Of a stretch of 64,000 bases of DNA, positions 27,150 to 41,112 are shown in pieces. Below the pieces are notes generated by a model. The model was not told where the DNA came from, ran no database searches, and worked only from the letters and a program-made list of their open reading frames with translations. Position 1 is the first letter of the stretch, and every line of letters begins with the position of its first letter. Origin of the DNA: Candidatus Krumholzibacteriia bacterium (GTDB lineage: Bacteria > Krumholzibacteriota > Krumholzibacteriia > Krumholzibacteriales > Krumholzibacteriaceae); assembly GCA_963836185.1 (NCBI GenBank), contig CAWIIQ010000001.1, positions 1,888,001 to 1,952,000 of the forward strand, written 5' to 3'. A program made the position numbers and the translations under genes.

Positions 27150-28474
27150 GTTCCGGAATCTACAGGACAATATACATCATCGGGAGCCGGCTGCGCGGCA
27201 CGCCGGTCATCCCCTTCCTGCGCGAACTCGAAGAGTCCCAGTGGTGGGATATCGAGCGCACCCGCGAGTACCAGCTCGAAAGGCTGCGGAAACTCCTGCG
27301 CCACGCCGAAGAGTTTTCACCTTTCTATAGAGATATCATCCGTCAGCGCGAGTTCAAGGCTGATACAGTATCGCTCGATGAGCTTAATAGCCTGCCTGCC
27401 GTTAGCAAGGATCAGATAAAAGAAAACTTCGCGGATATACAGAATCATGGGCTCGGCGGGAGCCTCATCCCCTCGAAGACCTCGGGCAGCACCGGCGAAC
27501 CGCTCAAGTTCTACCGCGGCTCCGAATGGGACGCCCAGCACCGGGCCGCCGTCGCGAGAGGCTACAGCTGGTACGGAGTCTACCCGTGGACGAGAAGCGG
27601 CCTTCTCTGGGGGCTGCCCGCTGGTAGATCAGCTCTCCTCAAGACAAAGATCGAAGATTCCCTGCAGAACCGTTTCCGGGAGAAAAGATTCGATCTCTCA
27701 CCTGATACGCTCGAAAGGTTCTACAGACAACTTTCCGGCGCGGGATTTATCGAGGGTTACTCGAGCATGATCTATGAGCTGGCAAGATTCATCAATACGC
27801 ATCATCCCGGCGAGAAATATATCTCCCTGTCGCTCGTAAAGGGGACTTCTGAGAAGATATATCCTCGATACCATGAGGAATCACGAAAAGCCTTCGGGCG
27901 AAGGATGACGAGCGAGTATGGAGCCGCCGAGACGGGGATCATAGCCTTCGAATGTCCCGATGGGAACATGCACATCAACATGGAACATGTCATCGTCGAA
28001 GAAGAGGACGGCGAAATCATAGTCACCAACCTGCTGTCATACTCCTTCCCCTTCATAAGGTACAGGCTGGGCGACCACATCAGGATGGCAGGCTATATTA
28101 ACTGTCCGTGCGGGAGAAAGAGCCCGGTCATAAGCGAGATAACCGGAAGGATCGGAAAGAGAATATTCGGCACTGGAGGCAGCGAGTTCCCCAGCCTTAC
28201 CGTCTATTATATAATCAACGCACTGTACGAGGATTTCCCCGGCCTCTCGAGACTGCAGGCGCGGCAGGAATCAAAAGGAGAAATTGATTTTCTGGCGACA
28301 TATGATAGCAAGCCTGACAGCGGGAAGCTCTCCGCAATGGAGAAACGGCTCGATACCCTTATCGGTAAATACTACGGGGAGAATATCGAAGCGAAACTCG
28401 CTCTCGTCGAATCGATCGTCAACGAGGGAGACAAGAAACTCGACTTCATCTCACACCTTCCCCAGGGGAGCTGA
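27146..28474 (+). CDS. Phenylacetate-CoA-ligase-like adenylating enzyme (CapK-type)
   Basis: TSGSTGEP, EYGAAE, VTNL...FPFIRYRLGD, CPCGR, ITGR. Confidence 0.88.
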   Translation: MSSGIYRTIYIIGSRLRGTPVIPFLRELEESQWWDIERTREYQLERLRKLLRHAEEFSPFYRDIIRQREFKADTVSLDELNSLPAVSKDQIKENFADIQNHGLGGSLIPSKTSGSTGEPLKFYRGSEWDAQHRAAVARGYSWYGVYPWTRSGLLWGLPAGRSALLKTKIEDSLQNRFREKRFDLSPDTLERFYRQLSGAGFIEGYSSMIYELARFINTHHPGEKYISLSLVKGTSEKIYPRYHEESRKAFGRRMTSEYGAAETGIIAFECPDGNMHINMEHVIVEEEDGEIIVTNLLSYSFPFIRYRLGDHIRMAGYINCPCGRKSPVISEITGRIGKRIFGTGGSEFPSLTVYYIINALYEDFPGLSRLQARQESKGEIDFLATYDSKPDSGKLSAMEKRLDTLIGKYYGENIEAKLALVESIVNEGDKKLDFISHLPQGS

Positions 28475-29147
28475 CCGGCAGGTCGGGCATGCCCTCGTAC
28501 CTGACCACATTATCCGGCATTCCACAGTAGACGAAGCTGTTGTTCATATGATCGCGTTCATCGAGGCCGATACGCATGAAAACATCAGCCCATGTATGAA
28601 GCGTGCCTGTATCGTCAACGACCGGATTGTTCACCGGCTGATCGGCCCACTCGGGATGATCCTCGACGAATTTCGCGTAGACATGCTCGGCATGGTCCTC
28701 GAACTCGGCGTTGAAGAGGAAAGCCCTGCGGATATTGCATACAGCCATCAACCGCGTCATGATCACGTAACCAGTCACCATGACCCAGGGAATCAGCGGC
28801 ATGAGATACCAGGGATCTTTCAATCCTTCTTCCTTCATCTTCTCGTTGATCGCCAGCAGGTGCCAGTACTCGTTGTCCTGAGCAGCTCTTCCCCACTCCT
28901 TGATGCCGTCTGCGTACCTGACCCTGTCAAGATCCCTATATATCCTTGTCAGCCTGGTATACTGCCGTATCTCCCACGACCTGTACGGGATGCTGGCAAG
29001 CGTCTCGATAAGTTTGGTCTTCGCTAGGGTTGTCTTTTTACCGGTGACCATATCCATAAGGCCGAAGAAGATCTTCGCCGCCAGGGAATACCGGTACCTC
29101 GGCCTGCCAAGACTCACCTGCTGTTCTTTCTTAAGGTCTATCTGCAT
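28446..29147 (-). CDS. Alternative-oxidase/PTOX-like di-iron carboxylate membrane protein
   Basis: LIETLASIPY, DNEYWHL, EFEDHAEHVY, IGLDERDH match the AOX ligand spacing (LET, NERMH, LEEEA..Y, RADE..H). Confidence 0.75.
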   Translation of the reverse strand: MQIDLKKEQQVSLGRPRYRYSLAAKIFFGLMDMVTGKKTTLAKTKLIETLASIPYRSWEIRQYTRLTRIYRDLDRVRYADGIKEWGRAAQDNEYWHLLAINEKMKEEGLKDPWYLMPLIPWVMVTGYVIMTRLMAVCNIRRAFLFNAEFEDHAEHVYAKFVEDHPEWADQPVNNPVVDDTGTLHTWADVFMRIGLDERDHMNNSFVYCGMPDNVVRYEGMPDLPVSSPGEGVR

Positions 29148-34466: not shown

Positions 34467-35288
34467 TCAGTGTTCAGGGTAGACTGCTTTCACTATATAG
34501 CCGCCGGAGCGCTTGTCGTGCTCGAGTTCGATCAATCCCTGGCGTTCCGCTGCCTCGAGCATCTGCTTGAATCCCCGGAAACCGAAGTAGGACTCGTTGA
34601 ATCCCGGCCTGCGCCTCTTAAGGGTCTGCTTGACCATCGATCCCCATATCTTTTCCTCATCCCCACGTTCCTCGATCAGCGCATCGACGGTTTCCACGAT
34701 AAGATCCAGCCCCTGCTGAAGCTGCTCCTCCTCTTTCTTCGCCTTGGACTTCTTCTTGTCCTTGGTCTTTGTCACCGGCGCTCGTTTGCGTGAGCGCCCC
34801 TGCCGTTCCTCTTTTCGGACGAGATCGTCGTAGAAGATGAACTCATCGCAGTTCGCGGCAAGAAGGTTGGAGGTCGAGTTTTTGACACCCACCCCGATCA
34901 CGGTCTTGTTGTTCTCCCGAAGCTTGCTGACCAGAGGCGAAAAATCGGAATCGCCTGAAAGTATGACGAAGGTATCGACATGAGGTTTGGTGTAGCAGAG
35001 ATCGAGAGCATCGACGACCATGCGGATGTCGGCGGAATTCTTGCCGGTCATCCTGACATGCGGGATCTCGATCAGTTCGAACGCCGCCTCATGCATCGGC
35101 TGCTTGAATTCCTTGTACTTCTCCCAGTCGCAGTATGCCTTCTTGACTATGATCGTGCCTTTGAGCAGCAGGCGCTCGACTACCTTGGCAATCTCGAAGT
35201 CATCGTAATTGGATTCACGGGTGCCGATCGCGATATTCTCGAAATCACAGAAAACAGCGAGGTTTGCGGTCGAAGTATTTTCCACCAT
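34467..35288 (-). CDS. NYN-domain (LabA/PIN-like) protein with C-terminal LOTUS/OST-HTH
   Basis: FCDFENI, GKNSADIRMVVD, SGDSDFSPLV, PGFNESYFGFRGF. Confidence 0.9.
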   Translation of the reverse strand: MVENTSTANLAVFCDFENIAIGTRESNYDDFEIAKVVERLLLKGTIIVKKAYCDWEKYKEFKQPMHEAAFELIEIPHVRMTGKNSADIRMVVDALDLCYTKPHVDTFVILSGDSDFSPLVSKLRENNKTVIGVGVKNSTSNLLAANCDEFIFYDDLVRKEERQGRSRKRAPVTKTKDKKKSKAKKEEEQLQQGLDLIVETVDALIEERGDEEKIWGSMVKQTLKRRRPGFNESYFGFRGFKQMLEAAERQGLIELEHDKRSGGYIVKAVYPEH

Positions 35289-35468: not shown

Positions 35469-35500
35469 CAGGAAGCTCCCGCCCAGCCGGGAGCTTCCTG
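35469..35500 (-). terminator. Terminator hairpin after the sulfatase
   Basis: CAGGAAGCTCCCG-CCCAGC-CGGGAGCTTCCTG, a perfect 13-bp stem. Confidence 0.65.
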
Positions 35501-35537: not shown

Positions 35538-37142
35538 TCAATGCCCCGGTGGAGTCAGCTTCTCCATGACCTTATCGATCGTGAAGCTGGCCGCCTCCTG
35601 TCGCGGCGGGAACTCCTCGAACGTCGCGAGGAATTTGCCGACGTACGCCTGAGCCGGTATCAGCAGGAAGGCGTGGTCAAGGTACCAGTCCCAGTAGGTA
35701 TTCGAGGTGATGCTCGCCTTCTCGTACGGATCGGTGCGAAGGTTGAACAGCCAGGGGATCCTGGTCATTACGTATGGCTCGCCCCAGACCAGCATCGTGC
35801 CGTCAGCCCGCTGCTGAGCGAATACGACCTTCCAGTTGTCATAGCGCATAGCGGTCAGATCACCGTCATCGCTGAAATAGATGAACGACTCCCTTGGACT
35901 CTTATCCTCCTTGCCGGTAAGGTAGGGCAGCAGGTCATAGCCGTCGATATGGACCTTGAACTTCTTTTTTCCGGCCTTGAAGCCCTTCTTCAGCTTCTCA
36001 CCTATGTCCGGTTCGCCGGCTATCGCCATGAATGTGGGCAGCCAGTCCATGTGAGATACGATCTCGTTGGACACGGTACCTGCTTCGATCTTGCCCGGCC
36101 AGCGAACTATCGCCGGCACGCGGTAGGCGCCTTCCCAGTTGGAGTTCTTCTCGTTGCGGAATGGCGTCATGCCTCCATCGGGCCACGTATTCATATGCGG
36201 ACCGTTGTCGGTGCTGTAGAAGACAATCGTATTCTCACTCAAACCGAGTTCATCGAGTTTATCGAGCACCGTTCCGACGTTCTGGTCATGATCGATCATT
36301 GCATCGTGATAGGGGCTCTGCCAGCGTCCGGACTGTCCCTGGCTCTCCGGCTTGACATGCGTGCGGAAGTGCATGTGCGTGAAATTCACCCATACAAAGA
36401 AAGGTTTGCCCGATTTGTGCTGTTCCTCGATGAACTTCACAGCCCTGTCCGCCACGTCGTCGTCAATCGTTTCCATCCGTTTTTTAGTCAGGGGGCCGGT
36501 GTCCTCGATCTTCTGACTGCCATCCTCAAGTCCATAACTGTGGATGACACCCCGGGGGCCAAACCTCTTCCGGAATTCGGGATCCTTCGGATAATCAGGC
36601 AGTTCCGGCTCTTCCTCGGCGTTGAGGTGATAGAGGTTGCCATAGAATTCGTCGAATCCGTGGTTAGTGGGCAGGTGCTCGTCCTTGTCCCCAAGATGGT
36701 TTTTGCCGAACTGGCCCGTTGCGTAGCCCATCGGCTTGAGAAGTTCGGCGATCGTCGGATCCTTCTCATGCATACCGAGATCGGCACCTGGCAGCCCGAC
36801 TTTGCTCAGGCCGGTACGGAAAACGCTCTGCCCGGTGATGAATGCCGATCGGCCGGCGGTAGAGCTCTGCTCAGCGTAGTAATCGGTAAACATCATCCCT
36901 TCTCTGGCGAGACGGTCGATGTTGGGTGTCTGATACCCCATCAGCCCCCTGGTGTAGCAGCTCAGGTTGCTCTGTCCGATATCATCACCCCAGATCACGA
37001 CGATGTTCGGACTTTTCGCAGCAGGCGGGGTCTCTGCCCTCGTCTTCTGCGGCGATACGGCAATGACTGAGGCCGTGGCGAGGACCGTCCCCACTAGTGC
37101 CCAGCTGCCGGCTCTCCTTATTTTCAAAGGAGTTACTGACAT
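35538..37142 (-). CDS. Arylsulfatase (S1 family), Ser-type, exported
   Basis: PNIVVIWGDD, TPNID, motif QS-STAGR-SAFITG (TCT codon = Ser), GKNHLG, STDNGP, WEGAYRVP; N-terminal signal. Confidence 0.93.
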   Translation of the reverse strand: MSVTPLKIRRAGSWALVGTVLATASVIAVSPQKTRAETPPAAKSPNIVVIWGDDIGQSNLSCYTRGLMGYQTPNIDRLAREGMMFTDYYAEQSSTAGRSAFITGQSVFRTGLSKVGLPGADLGMHEKDPTIAELLKPMGYATGQFGKNHLGDKDEHLPTNHGFDEFYGNLYHLNAEEEPELPDYPKDPEFRKRFGPRGVIHSYGLEDGSQKIEDTGPLTKKRMETIDDDVADRAVKFIEEQHKSGKPFFVWVNFTHMHFRTHVKPESQGQSGRWQSPYHDAMIDHDQNVGTVLDKLDELGLSENTIVFYSTDNGPHMNTWPDGGMTPFRNEKNSNWEGAYRVPAIVRWPGKIEAGTVSNEIVSHMDWLPTFMAIAGEPDIGEKLKKGFKAGKKKFKVHIDGYDLLPYLTGKEDKSPRESFIYFSDDGDLTAMRYDNWKVVFAQQRADGTMLVWGEPYVMTRIPWLFNLRTDPYEKASITSNTYWDWYLDHAFLLIPAQAYVGKFLATFEEFPPRQEAASFTIDKVMEKLTPPGH

Positions 37143-37248
37143 GCATTTCCTCCTCTTCCATGAATTGTATAGAGTCTCATTATGAGTTATTGCTAATGAT
37201 TCTTCTCTGAAGCGATATTAGAGCATTTCCCAGAATTTTCAATTTCTA

Positions 37249-37998
37249 TTATTTATTTTCTATCAGGTAATCCAGGATCTTCTCCGCCAGAATGAAACTG
37301 GAGATCCGGGACAGGCCGCCGCTTCGCATCAACTGCTTCTTCAGTGAGTCGGAATCTGTCCCGTGCGCACTGGCGATCTGCGCGATACGCTCCTCGACAT
37401 CCCTGTCGTCGACATCGATTCCGTCGCGGCGGGCGACGGCGCCCAGTATAAGGAGGAGTTTAACGCGGGCAAGGGCGGCGTTCCATTCATCACTCTCCGG
37501 CTCCGCTCCCTCCAGCCCGTCAAAGAGAAGCTCCTGCCTTACAAGTTCATCGGGGACATCGAACTCTGTATGTTCGAGCAGGAATTCGGATATCTCGTCG
37601 CGCATCCCTTCATCTGAATCGGCCCCGAGGACCAGAGCGCATGTGTCGGGCAGCGTAAAATCGGGCAGTTCAGTGAACTCGGCCATAAAGCTGATCGGCC
37701 CGCCGTATTCGACCGATATCTCCATGATCCCTACCGGGCCGGTCGTTGTAATACCTTCCGCCTCCAGGGCAGCCCTCGCTATACGTCCGGCGCACCGGAT
37801 ACCGAGGTCCTCGAGGATCGGCTCCATGAATTCCTTCTCTACCATCGCTTTCGGAGCTTTGCCCGGCCTGAAACCGGGAACGGGAAGCTTTGCGTACTCG
37901 GAGAGAAGGTCCCTGTAATCGGGCTCTATCTTCTCCCACTCCGCCTCGATAAGGGCCTCTCTTCTGCCGCTTCCGATATCCTTAACCGATACCTTCAT
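37249..37998 (-). CDS. Short trigger-factor paralog (ribosome-binding N-domain and partial C-domain, no FKBP PPIase domain)
   Basis: ATG 37998 overlaps the anSME stop (ATGA); 249 aa; signature PGFRPGKAP; C-part FDVPDELVRQE...RVKLLLILGAVARRDGI. Confidence 0.8.
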   Translation of the reverse strand: MKVSVKDIGSGRREALIEAEWEKIEPDYRDLLSEYAKLPVPGFRPGKAPKAMVEKEFMEPILEDLGIRCAGRIARAALEAEGITTTGPVGIMEISVEYGGPISFMAEFTELPDFTLPDTCALVLGADSDEGMRDEISEFLLEHTEFDVPDELVRQELLFDGLEGAEPESDEWNAALARVKLLLILGAVARRDGIDVDDRDVEERIAQIASAHGTDSDSLKKQLMRSGGLSRISSFILAEKILDYLIENK

Positions 37999-39260
37999 CT
38001 GACGACTCCCTCTTTCGGCTCCCGTCCCATGTCGCGGATTATCCTCTGGACGTGCGGGTCGATATGACGGAAATACCGTTTCAATCCTGAGCAGAGGTAG
38101 TTCAACCCCCGTTCCCCCTCGGGAGTTCGGATGAACCTGTTCTTCGGGCACTCGCCGGCGCAGGCGAAGAGGTAATCGCAGCGGCGACACTGGCCGGGCA
38201 GGGATAAGTCCTTCGCAAACCCGAATCCCTCCTGCCTCTCGGACAGTACCATCCGGTCGATCGGTTCCTCGTTGATGCTGCCGAGCCTGTACTCGGGATA
38301 GACGTAATGATCGCACGAGTAGACGCTCCCGTCATGCTCGATTGCGACACCCTTCCCGCATATCGGCCCGAATATGCAGAGCGGCGATATCTGTCCCATC
38401 CACTGGGCGACGGCGGACTCGAAGAATGTCACAAAATGCCTGCCGATATCCTTTTCCCGCCAATCATCGAATATCGCGATGAGAAAATCGCCGTAATCGT
38501 CGGGGTCGACGCACCAGTCCTCGACTACCGATTCGGGAGTGCCCGGCCTCGCACGGGGGTCGTCTATGTCGGGCACGAGAAAATCGGGCCATCTCTGCGG
38601 AGCCGTGTCCCGGAATATCTTCGGCTCGACTATCGGGATAAACTGCATCCTCTCCGGGCCGACCTCGTCGCGCAGGAAACGATATACCTCGAGCGGGCGC
38701 TTTCCGGTGATCCGGTTGACGCAGCTCAGTGTGGCGTACCTCGTCTTGTGCTTCCTAAGGAGTTTCGAAGCGCGGAAGACGTCGTCGAACGACCCTCTCC
38801 CGTCCTTGTATGTGCGGTATTGGTCGTGCAGTTCCTTCGGGCCGTCGATACTCAGTCCGACGAGAAAATCGTTCTCGGCAAGAAACGAGCACCAGTCATC
38901 GTCAAGAAGGGTCCCGTTCGTCTGAAGATCGTTCTCCACCCTCATCCACGAAGGGGCGTACTTCTTCTGCAGTTCCACGACCTTCACGAGGAAGTCGAGC
39001 CCCAGCAGTGTCGGCTCCCCTCCCTGCCAGGAGAAAACGACCTCTTTGAAGTTCTGGCCCTCTATATACTGGCGTATGAACTTCTCGAGGATCTCGTCGC
39101 TCATCCTCCATTTACTATCCGTTGAGAGCAACTGTTCCTTGTGGAGGTAGAAGCAGTAGTCACAATCGAGGTTGCAGACTGGCCCGAGGGGCTTGGCCAT
39201 CGCATGCATCCTCACGACAGGCTTCCCCCTGAAAACACGTTTCTTTCTCTCTTCACCCAT
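37995..39260 (-). CDS. Anaerobic sulfatase-maturating radical SAM/SPASM enzyme (anSME)
   Basis: CNLDCDYC, WQGGEPTL, LQTNG, SIDGP; SPASM CIFGPIC..YSCDH..CRRC...CAGECPKNR..YLC. Confidence 0.95.
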   Translation of the reverse strand: MGEERKKRVFRGKPVVRMHAMAKPLGPVCNLDCDYCFYLHKEQLLSTDSKWRMSDEILEKFIRQYIEGQNFKEVVFSWQGGEPTLLGLDFLVKVVELQKKYAPSWMRVENDLQTNGTLLDDDWCSFLAENDFLVGLSIDGPKELHDQYRTYKDGRGSFDDVFRASKLLRKHKTRYATLSCVNRITGKRPLEVYRFLRDEVGPERMQFIPIVEPKIFRDTAPQRWPDFLVPDIDDPRARPGTPESVVEDWCVDPDDYGDFLIAIFDDWREKDIGRHFVTFFESAVAQWMGQISPLCIFGPICGKGVAIEHDGSVYSCDHYVYPEYRLGSINEEPIDRMVLSERQEGFGFAKDLSLPGQCRRCDYLFACAGECPKNRFIRTPEGERGLNYLCSGLKRYFRHIDPHVQRIIRDMGREPKEGVVR

Positions 39261-39554
39261 AAGATTTGCAGCGTACTCTTTCGGTGCCAAGTTGTCTAGA
39301 GCACTGTGTGGGGACAGGTCCGTACAATTCCATCAATTACGATTTCTTACAATTAATAAGAAATATCTCATTTTGTTCTTGTGTTTTCATACTGATAGGG
39401 TATACTGCTCCTGAAACGGATCGATTCGGGATACTGACCGAAATTGACGATAAACGAGACCTATCAAGTTGATCTTCTCTTTAGGGGCCTTTAAATCTTC
39501 CGAAAAAATATCTGTTTGATGCAATATTCGTTTGAGCCCTTTGAGGAGGCTGAC

Positions 39555-39901: not shown

Positions 39902-39940
39902 AGAGGGAAGCAGGTCAAGCCGGCTTCCCTCTTTCTGTTT
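39902..39940. terminator. Probable terminator between converging RRM and MFS genes
   Basis: AGAGGGAAGC...GCTTCCCTCT followed by TTCTGTTT. Confidence 0.6.
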
Positions 39941-41112
39941 ATTGCAGTCTGGGTTTTGCCACGAATGAGACCAGAAGCAGGCCGACGAGGCTCATAGCCG
40001 CGCCGAAAGCGAATGTAGCCGAAGGTGATATCTGCTGCCAGAGGATCCCAGATATAAGGCCCCCCGGGAGAGCGGCAAGGCCGATCGTCGAGTGGAATGC
40101 TCCGAGCGATGTCGCCTTCAGATCTGGCGGGGCGAGGTCGGCGACAAAAGCCCTCTGCACCCCGTCGATCATCCCGTAGAAGATGCCGTATAGGACGAAG
40201 CATGTCAGGACCATCCACGGGGTGGCTGAAAGCAGGAGCAGGACCGATATCACCCCGAAGAAGGGATAGCAGAACATCAATATTGGTTTACGGCCTATCC
40301 GATCCGAGAGTGCACCGGCGGGGATCGAGACGATCGTATAGACTATGTAGAATATCGCATAGAAGAGTATCGCCCTCACGTCGGCCAGCCCGACGTCCTT
40401 CGCCCGCAGTAGCAGGAAGGCATATCCGAAATGTCCCAGGGTAAATACAGCCGTGGCGAAGATGTAGAGCTTGAGGTTCGCTGGCAGGGCGCGGAAACTT
40501 ATCTTCCGCTTTTTTCTCCTCTGAATGCTCTGCTTCTTTCCTGCCGTTCTTTCGCTTCTCGATGATAAGCAGGGTAAAGAAGATCGCGATGATCCCGGGA
40601 ATCACCGCTACGAGGAATAGATTCCTGAATCCAAGCAAAGGCAGGAGCAGGAAGGCGGCGACTGCGCCTAGCACCGAACCGATCCCGTCCATCGCCCTGT
40701 GAAAGCCGAAGGCCTTTCCCCTGTTCTCCTGCTCGACCGACTCCGCGACCAGGGCATCGCGCGGTGCGTTGCGAAGCCCCTTCCCTATCCTCTCGGTGAG
40801 CCTTATCCCGAGAACGCCGCCTACCGAACCGGCCACAGCGAAGAGAGGTTTTGCAAGGGCGCTGAGTGCGTACCCGGCCACGACGAACGGCTTGCGCCTG
40901 CGAAGGCGGTCCGACCATATCCCCGAGAAGGCCTTGAGGATCGATGCGATCGCCTCCGCCCCACCCTCGACGAGGCCGACCATCATCGCTCCCGCTCCGA
41001 GGACCGATGTCATATAGAGCGGCAGCAACGGAAATACCATCTGGCTGGAAAGATCGGTAAAGAGGCTGACGAGCCCGAGGAGATATACGTTCCTGAAGCG
41101 CTTGTCAGCCAT
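39939..41112 (-). CDS. MFS transporter; frameshift at the T7 run near 40512
   Basis: LGLVSLFTDLSSQM, SDRLRRRKP, ERIGKGLRNAPRDAL, GKAFGFHRAMD; second half GALSDRIGRK. Confidence 0.88.

Follow-up and report, generated by a model that had tools for sequence, protein, structure and literature searches.

A trigger factor paralog without a PPIase domain, encoded between an anSME and a sulfatase: a candidate dedicated maturation chaperone

Described relatives of the locus

Formylglycine conversion of exported sulfatases must occur in the cytoplasm before Sec export, in a race between modification and translocation. We analyzed a 64,000-nucleotide stretch of the genome of a Candidatus Krumholzibacteriia bacterium (GCA_963836185.1, contig CAWIIQ010000001.1, positions 1,888,001 to 1,952,000; hereafter the window), in which a short paralog of trigger factor (TF), designated mini-TF, is encoded between an anaerobic sulfatase-maturating enzyme (anSME) and an exported sulfatase. 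We tentatively regard mini-TF as a dedicated chaperone that may hold the new sulfatase by its signal peptide until it is activated by anSME. The first-pass annotation of this DNA had stated that no factor of this kind was described; this is too strong, since two reports present PceT/RdhT as operon-encoded, dedicated maturation chaperones of the TF family that bind the signal peptide of their client before export (PMC8905343, PMC10624902).

PceT and RdhT, which belong to reductive-dehalogenase operons of Desulfitobacterium and Dehalobacter, are the closest precedent and are encoded with their exported client, as is mini-TF (16 of 20 loci have a sulfatase directly after it). Their client, however, is a substrate of twin-arginine translocation (Tat) that folds with its cofactors inside the cell, whereas the client of mini-TF is a predicted Sec substrate, with no conserved twin-arginine in 16 signal peptides. 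PceT is not known to have a ribosome-binding domain, and it keeps the peptidyl-prolyl isomerase (PPIase) domain. Mini-TF, which is not a member of PceT/RdhT, has the opposite architecture: the docking domain is kept, the PPIase domain is lost, and a covalent-modification enzyme is the constant neighbor.

Canonical TF (tig, TIGR00115) and mini-TF are alike in the fold of the N-domain, the GFRxGxxP signature and the C-terminal arms; unlike canonical TF (~430 aa), mini-TF is an extra copy outside the tig-clp locus, patchily distributed and without a PPIase domain. Multiple TF copies were surveyed in 15,575 genomes, and one copy alone keeps the docking motif in 367 of the 390 multi-copy genomes (PMC11559001). 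The mini-TF family is an exception to this published pattern of extra copies losing ribosome docking, because its members keep the docking motif and drop the PPIase domain instead. Sulfatases are not mentioned in the main text of the survey. Among the 18 exception identifiers from it that we examined, two 296-aa Halieaceae proteins and one 314-aa Microbispora protein are short; the former (WP_117318469 and WP_101522573 in Data set S1 of PMC11559001) keep the docking motif and may be cultured relatives or an independent PPIase-less type.

Chloroplast Tig2 is presented as a truncated TF with a ribosome-binding domain that acts in ribosome biogenesis (PMC11731035). Tig2 is an N-domain alone, whereas mini-TF retains the C-terminal cradle and sits in an enzyme-maturation operon. 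Among sulfatase systems, Klebsiella AtsB/AtsA resembles the mini-TF loci in that an anSME is encoded with an exported Ser-type sulfatase. The action of AtsB reportedly depended on the signal peptide of AtsA (work of Marquordt from 2003), and to our knowledge no dedicated chaperone gene is known for this pair. Our literature search, which did not extend to most subscription journals, turned up no account of a TF paralog that serves in sulfatase maturation. The three-part module of candidate chaperone, maturase clade and signal motif is real, has strong support from the genomes and is apparently undescribed; its operon offers three small expressible parts that make the question of modification before export directly testable.

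Architecture, ancestry and genomic context of mini-TF

The locus in the window includes the following features:

37995..39290, minus strand: anSME (radical SAM/SPASM) of the mini-TF-linked clade, with the N-terminal [FY]R[GR][KR]PVxRMH extension; TIGR03942 464.6 bits, cut-off 349.45; likely start ATG at 39260
37249..37998, minus strand: mini-TF, 249 aa; Trigger_N and partial Trigger_C, PGFRPGKAP
35538..37142, minus strand: sulfatase, 534 aa, Ser at the modified position; PF00884, EQSSTAGR
37008..37142, minus strand: N-terminal 45 codons of the sulfatase, predicted Sec signal peptide; W14-A-x-V17-G18-x-x-L21, A-x-A-like cleavage site (T-R-A/E)
35469..35500, minus strand: 13-bp perfect hairpin 3' of the sulfatase; weak U tail, absent from the terminator scan list

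The genes are read in the order anSME, mini-TF, sulfatase. The mini-TF ATG overlaps the stop codon of the anSME gene (ATGA), and GAGGGAG lies upstream of the mini-TF start, within the 3' end of the anSME gene. The CxxxCxxC and SPASM cysteines of the anSME are intact. The sulfatase (PF00884, 183.7 bits) has a signal-like N-terminal segment and carries S-T-A-G-R, which fits [CS]-x-[PA]-x-R. The hairpin is probably the end of the operon; the promoter and terminator scans gave results at chance level.

Mini-TF is a homolog within the trigger factor superfamily that lies outside the canonical tig equivalog (TIGR00115, 108 bits, below the cut-off of 180). In the Pfam scan, Trigger_N was matched at residues 1–123 (PF05697, 63.4 bits, cut-off 22.2) and Trigger_C in its last half only (model positions 79–162), with no match to FKBP (PF00254); PGFRPGKAP includes the TF signature GFRxGxxP. 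The family profile aligns to residues 1–139 and 284–410 of E. coli TF and skips about 140–283, so that neither the PPIase domain nor the C-domain's first long helix is present. The ribosome-binding domain is joined directly to a shortened C-terminal domain; arm 1 is ~12 residues shorter, and ~145 residues are missing overall in comparison to E. coli TF. The earlier description of a 249-aa protein with the docking signature, part of the C-domain and no FKBP domain was accurate. The AlphaFold2 model had a mean predicted local distance difference test score of 93.1, and all 12 of its 12 best PDB fold matches were trigger factors, including TF N-domains. The protein is acidic, with 52 Asp and Glu vs 28 Lys and Arg residues.

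A homolog search with mini-TF returned 108 proteins, 58 of which, besides the query, had E values of 2e-42 or better. The length is 248–305 aa with 93–100% coverage in 55 of these, three are partial, and none of the 58 matches PF00254. A profile search of 1.84 billion representatives gave a list of the best 150 matches, of which 43 were kept (one stretch, 229–291 aa); they represent 43 clusters at 50% identity and are 27–44% identical to the window mini-TF, except for one close member at 65%. Among close mini-TFs, 55 of 56 carry the strict GFRxGxxP, as do 35 of the 43 distant ones, and all 56 close members share the G, F, R and P without exception, at a mean column identity of 48%. A tree built by a quick search from 39 short and 41 full-length TFs placed the short ones on one side of a branch with support 99, apart from their hosts' own tig; the shared deletion may aid this grouping. 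The ratio of nonsynonymous to synonymous substitution rates (dN/dS) was 0.14–0.30 in 25 pairs. Mini-TF is an old family under purifying selection and not a fragment.

Source labels of the homologs include Eisenbacteria, Bacteroidota, Victivallales and Kiritimatiellia, and Thermodesulfobacteriota is the most frequent source in the two nearest Atlas clusters, which have 79 and 149 members and lengths of 258 and 230 aa. In a sample of 201 genomes of the phylum, mini-TF was present in six: the source genome and 5 of 41 from its family, with 0 of 159 outside. There was no match in 72,556 plasmids, nor in viral contigs searched with the alignment of the distant branch (A4). No fused form was seen among 7990 longer candidates, which is a weak test, or among the best 150 representatives.

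Three genes with Trigger_N are present in the source genome: the window mini-TF, a second mini-TF 59% identical to it, and tig. The last (G000:C1:1484982-1486302) has a single frameshift in the assembly and is followed by genes that we take, from their sequences, to be clpP-clpX-lon. The frameshift is probably an assembly error, because other nearby genes are also split. An intact TF of 429–451 aa occurs in all five relatives carrying mini-TF. The placement of mini-TF outside the tig-clp locus, and the presence of a separate tig, hold as first supposed, albeit with a frameshifted tig in the source genome. The second mini-TF has an operon of its own (G000:C1:753173-758134, L033), with the order anSME, anSME, mini-TF, Ser-type sulfatase. 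The tandem of two different anSMEs recurs in L006 and L008, and this repetition suggests two maturase clades with different clients.

Gene context was compared in 20 distinct loci, of which two belong to the source genome, five to relatives and 13 to metagenomes. Scanning 14 of the 64 metagenome parts yielded 16 loci, from which L018–L020 were dropped as weak matches of the TF type at 26–30% identity (L018 is a long two-stretch open reading frame); L004 duplicates the locus of the relative G003, which was also the one locus returned by a contig scan with a single protein. An anSME or a sulfatase is present in all 20 loci, and the linkage of mini-TF to them is far above chance, which bears out the association anticipated in the first-pass annotation. 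The anSME lies within 1 kb upstream of mini-TF in 15 loci, and in the remaining five the upstream DNA extends over <500 bp. Mini-TF is directly followed by a sulfatase in 16; in the other four, two contigs end within 200 bp, and a hydrolase of the HAD type (G003) or a leucine-rich repeat (LRR) gene (L014) follows. Where the contigs reach far enough, the order is anSME, mini-TF, sulfatase, and it is held between mini-TFs just 32–43% identical, despite sulfatase replacement, and twice in one genome. The gap between anSME and mini-TF runs from -4 to 808 nt, with 10 of the 15 values between -4 and +4 nt, and genes intervene in L008 and L012; the ATGA coupling noted in the first-pass annotation is not general.

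Other genes were also observed in this neighborhood. A gene of the 23S rRNA-intervening-sequence type (four-helix bundle, PF05635) stands between anSME and mini-TF in L012 (1680-2237, by Pfam) and L009 (3-464, by sequence likeness). In L028, L030 and L010 (4410-4514), the sulfatase is followed by a HAD hydrolase whose N-terminus is lipoprotein-like, and in G003 (L004:6896-7939) such a hydrolase takes its place; in L102, a HAD gene is also close to a plasmid sulfatase that is accompanied by an FGE gene.

The linked anSMEs form a group of their own, which had been overlooked in the first-pass annotation, as had the signal motif described below. As a control, 24 anSME matches were identified in 17 of 208 genomes of the phylum: all seven at 78–100% identity directly precede mini-TF, vs none of the 17 others, one of which is the second, upstream anSME of the same mini-TF operon. 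The 15 linked anSMEs, together with the convergent one of L014, fall on one side of a branch with support 91 in a tree of 32 rows. Where the start is readable, an N-terminal extension, [FY]R[GR][KR]PVxRMH, occurs in all 12 linked anSMEs and in none of the 18 unlinked ones. The source genome also has six matches to PF03781 (the FGE-sulfatase family), none inside the sulfatase operons.

The signal motif of the linked sulfatases

Among the 14 readable cases, the linked sulfatases are Cys-type in 10 and Ser-type in four, and the specificity for Ser-type clients suggested by the window is therefore not general. With 10 of 14 clients Cys-type and with the variable distance between anSME and mini-TF given above, neither a Ser-type client nor an ATGA overlap defines the system.

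The common feature is found in the signal peptide. A W-[AV]-x-V-G-x-x-L motif is present in 16 of 16 sulfatases directly downstream of mini-TF. In an alignment of 16 signals (14 from directly downstream sulfatases, two from other sulfatases of genomes or loci with mini-TF), W14, A15, V17, G18 and L21 are invariant, and a conserved twin-arginine is missing, because of which we assign the signal to the Sec type. That single residues stay fixed in signal peptides which otherwise vary suggests, more strongly than the comparison of distances below, a protein that reads the motif.

Other members of the sulfatase family are mostly without the motif. In a search that retrieved 2909 sulfatase family members, ranked by likeness to the window N-terminus and hence biased toward the motif, it was seen in 13 of the best 120, or 13 of the 79 with a long N-terminus, and a looser pattern added three more. 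It was seen in none of 10 other sulfatase-family matches from mini-TF genomes (five with clear signals), and the three plasmid homologs that were inspected, out of 449 records, are also without it. In a tree of mature domains with 62 rows, five of them partial, the motif requires at least seven changes. Sliding identity to the window sulfatase is 61% over the signal and 35% over the C-terminal part for L038, vs 20% over the signal and up to 91% over mature segments for P0183. These identities show mosaics of signal and mature parts. Across 11 loci, mini-TF distance is tracked by signal distance (rho 0.62, p 0.002), vs a weaker relation to mature-domain distance (0.25, p 0.03). A second sulfatase with a near-identical W-motif signal and a different mature domain was observed in L010 (4585-5205), ~2 kb after the first and not adjoining mini-TF.

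Proposed role of mini-TF and alternative explanations

It is very probable that mini-TF has some role in the anSME-sulfatase pathway. The specific reading that we prefer, to which we give a rough probability of 0.45, is that of a dedicated chaperone holding the new sulfatase by its signal peptide until activation by anSME. By analogy with ordinary TF, the N-domain of mini-TF would dock at uL23 beside the exit tunnel. The shortened cradle could capture the helix of the W-motif signal and keep the chain off SecYEG; TF delays the delivery of nascent Sec substrates to SecYEG (PMC8076867), and mini-TF would employ a narrowed form of this delay. The partner anSME would then convert the Ser or Cys ~60 residues further on to formylglycine, both residues being accepted by anSMEs (PMC3920027, PMC8326336). 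The basic N-terminal extension specific to the anSME clade possibly meets the acidic mini-TF, and the modified chain would be released to Sec and fold outside. A bolder version, in which mini-TF would be a client-specific ribosome adaptor that reads a W-x-x-V-G address at the exit tunnel and brings anSME for co-translational formylglycine formation as an export checkpoint, with catalytic domains swappable behind the tag, seems rather unlikely to us. Should the motif prove to be a portable address, the anaerobic production of active sulfatases or of formylglycine-tagged secreted proteins could benefit from it.

Several observations weigh against the proposed holding of the sulfatase by its signal. 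In G003 (99% complete), an intact anSME and mini-TF are followed by the HAD hydrolase; no W-motif sulfatase was found in this genome, and its three signal-bearing sulfatases are without the motif. In L014, the LRR gene follows mini-TF and the anSME of the clade is convergent, 1 kb away. Of the 43 distant mini-TFs, eight have a degraded docking motif. Simple adjacency, with recombination further inside the sulfatase, would likewise make signal and mini-TF diverge together, and the loci are not independent. Gene context covers part of the mini-TF family, without its members from Bacteroidota, Victivallales and Kiritimatiellia. Most of the anSMEs observed, and most sulfatases of the window-sulfatase family, occur without mini-TF, which is therefore not generally required. 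A predicted complex of mini-TF with the 45-residue signal (alignments of 80 and 16 rows) scored 0.02 against a mark of 0.32, with controls not folded, and counts neither for nor against this proposal.

Some of the same facts can be read as pointing to anSME, and not the sulfatase, as the partner of mini-TF, which would either fold and stabilize the enzymes of this clade or, as an adaptor, tether them at the ribosome exit, while the anSME itself reads the W motif like a leader peptide. This explanation, the main rival, is possible, though we find it doubtful. The anSME is the most constant neighbor of mini-TF and was seen at all 15 loci whose upstream DNA is long enough, with the exception of L009 and its inserted gene in the upstream 499 bp; the two genes are mostly separated by -4 to +4 nt, the linked anSMEs are a single clade with a private extension, and G003 keeps the pair where no W-motif sulfatase was found. 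However, the 17 unlinked anSMEs of similar architecture operate without mini-TF, genes intervene between the two in L008 and L012, no fused form was seen among the 7990 longer candidates (a weak test) or the best 150 representatives, and the precedent within the TF family, PceT, binds the signal peptide of its client. Alternatively, mini-TF might be a pathway-specific holdase that acts on the unfolded mature domain of the sulfatase once this has been released from the ribosome, with the docking motif kept for the fold or a dimer and the W motif for Sec targeting or by hitchhiking. The degraded motifs in the distant branch are in line with this, as is the survey result that additional TF copies mostly function with no ribosome binding (367/390 genomes, PMC11559001); but the G, F, R and P of the docking motif are invariant in the close members at a mean column identity of 48%, and invariant W, V, G and L amid variable signals point to a reader of the motif, so that we consider such a holdase improbable.

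A role unrelated to sulfatase maturation would make mini-TF a passenger in a mobile operon, with a general or ribosome-related task. Such a task has a parallel in Tig2, a truncated TF with a non-chaperone role at the ribosome (PMC11731035), and the distribution is patchy (5 of 41 genomes of the family, none of the 159 in the rest of the phylum sample). Nevertheless, the gene order is kept at 32–43% mini-TF identity, through sulfatase replacement and twice in one genome, which makes a mere passenger quite improbable. That mini-TF is a decaying tig, a possibility raised in the first-pass annotation, is refuted by selection (dN/dS 0.14–0.30 in 25 pairs) and by coexistence with an intact tig. Together with its variant, a stand-in for the frameshifted tig of the source genome, this explanation draws on the state of that gene in the assembly and retains a nearly negligible probability: length and junction are conserved in dozens of clusters, the branch is separate from the hosts' tig, tig is intact in 5/5 relatives with mini-TF, and other genes of the assembly also look frameshifted.

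Three further genes of the window, all on the minus strand, were noted outside the operon. Directly past the hairpin, 34467-35288 encodes an NYN-domain protein with a weak OST-HTH/LOTUS match; no such gene was seen beside mini-TF in the related loci. The 233-aa open reading frame at 28446-29147 has no Pfam match and an E/ExxH spacing that we presume to resemble that of alternative-oxidase or ferritin-like di-iron proteins. At 39939-41112, an MFS transporter is seemingly split across two open reading frames, which fits an assembly frameshift.

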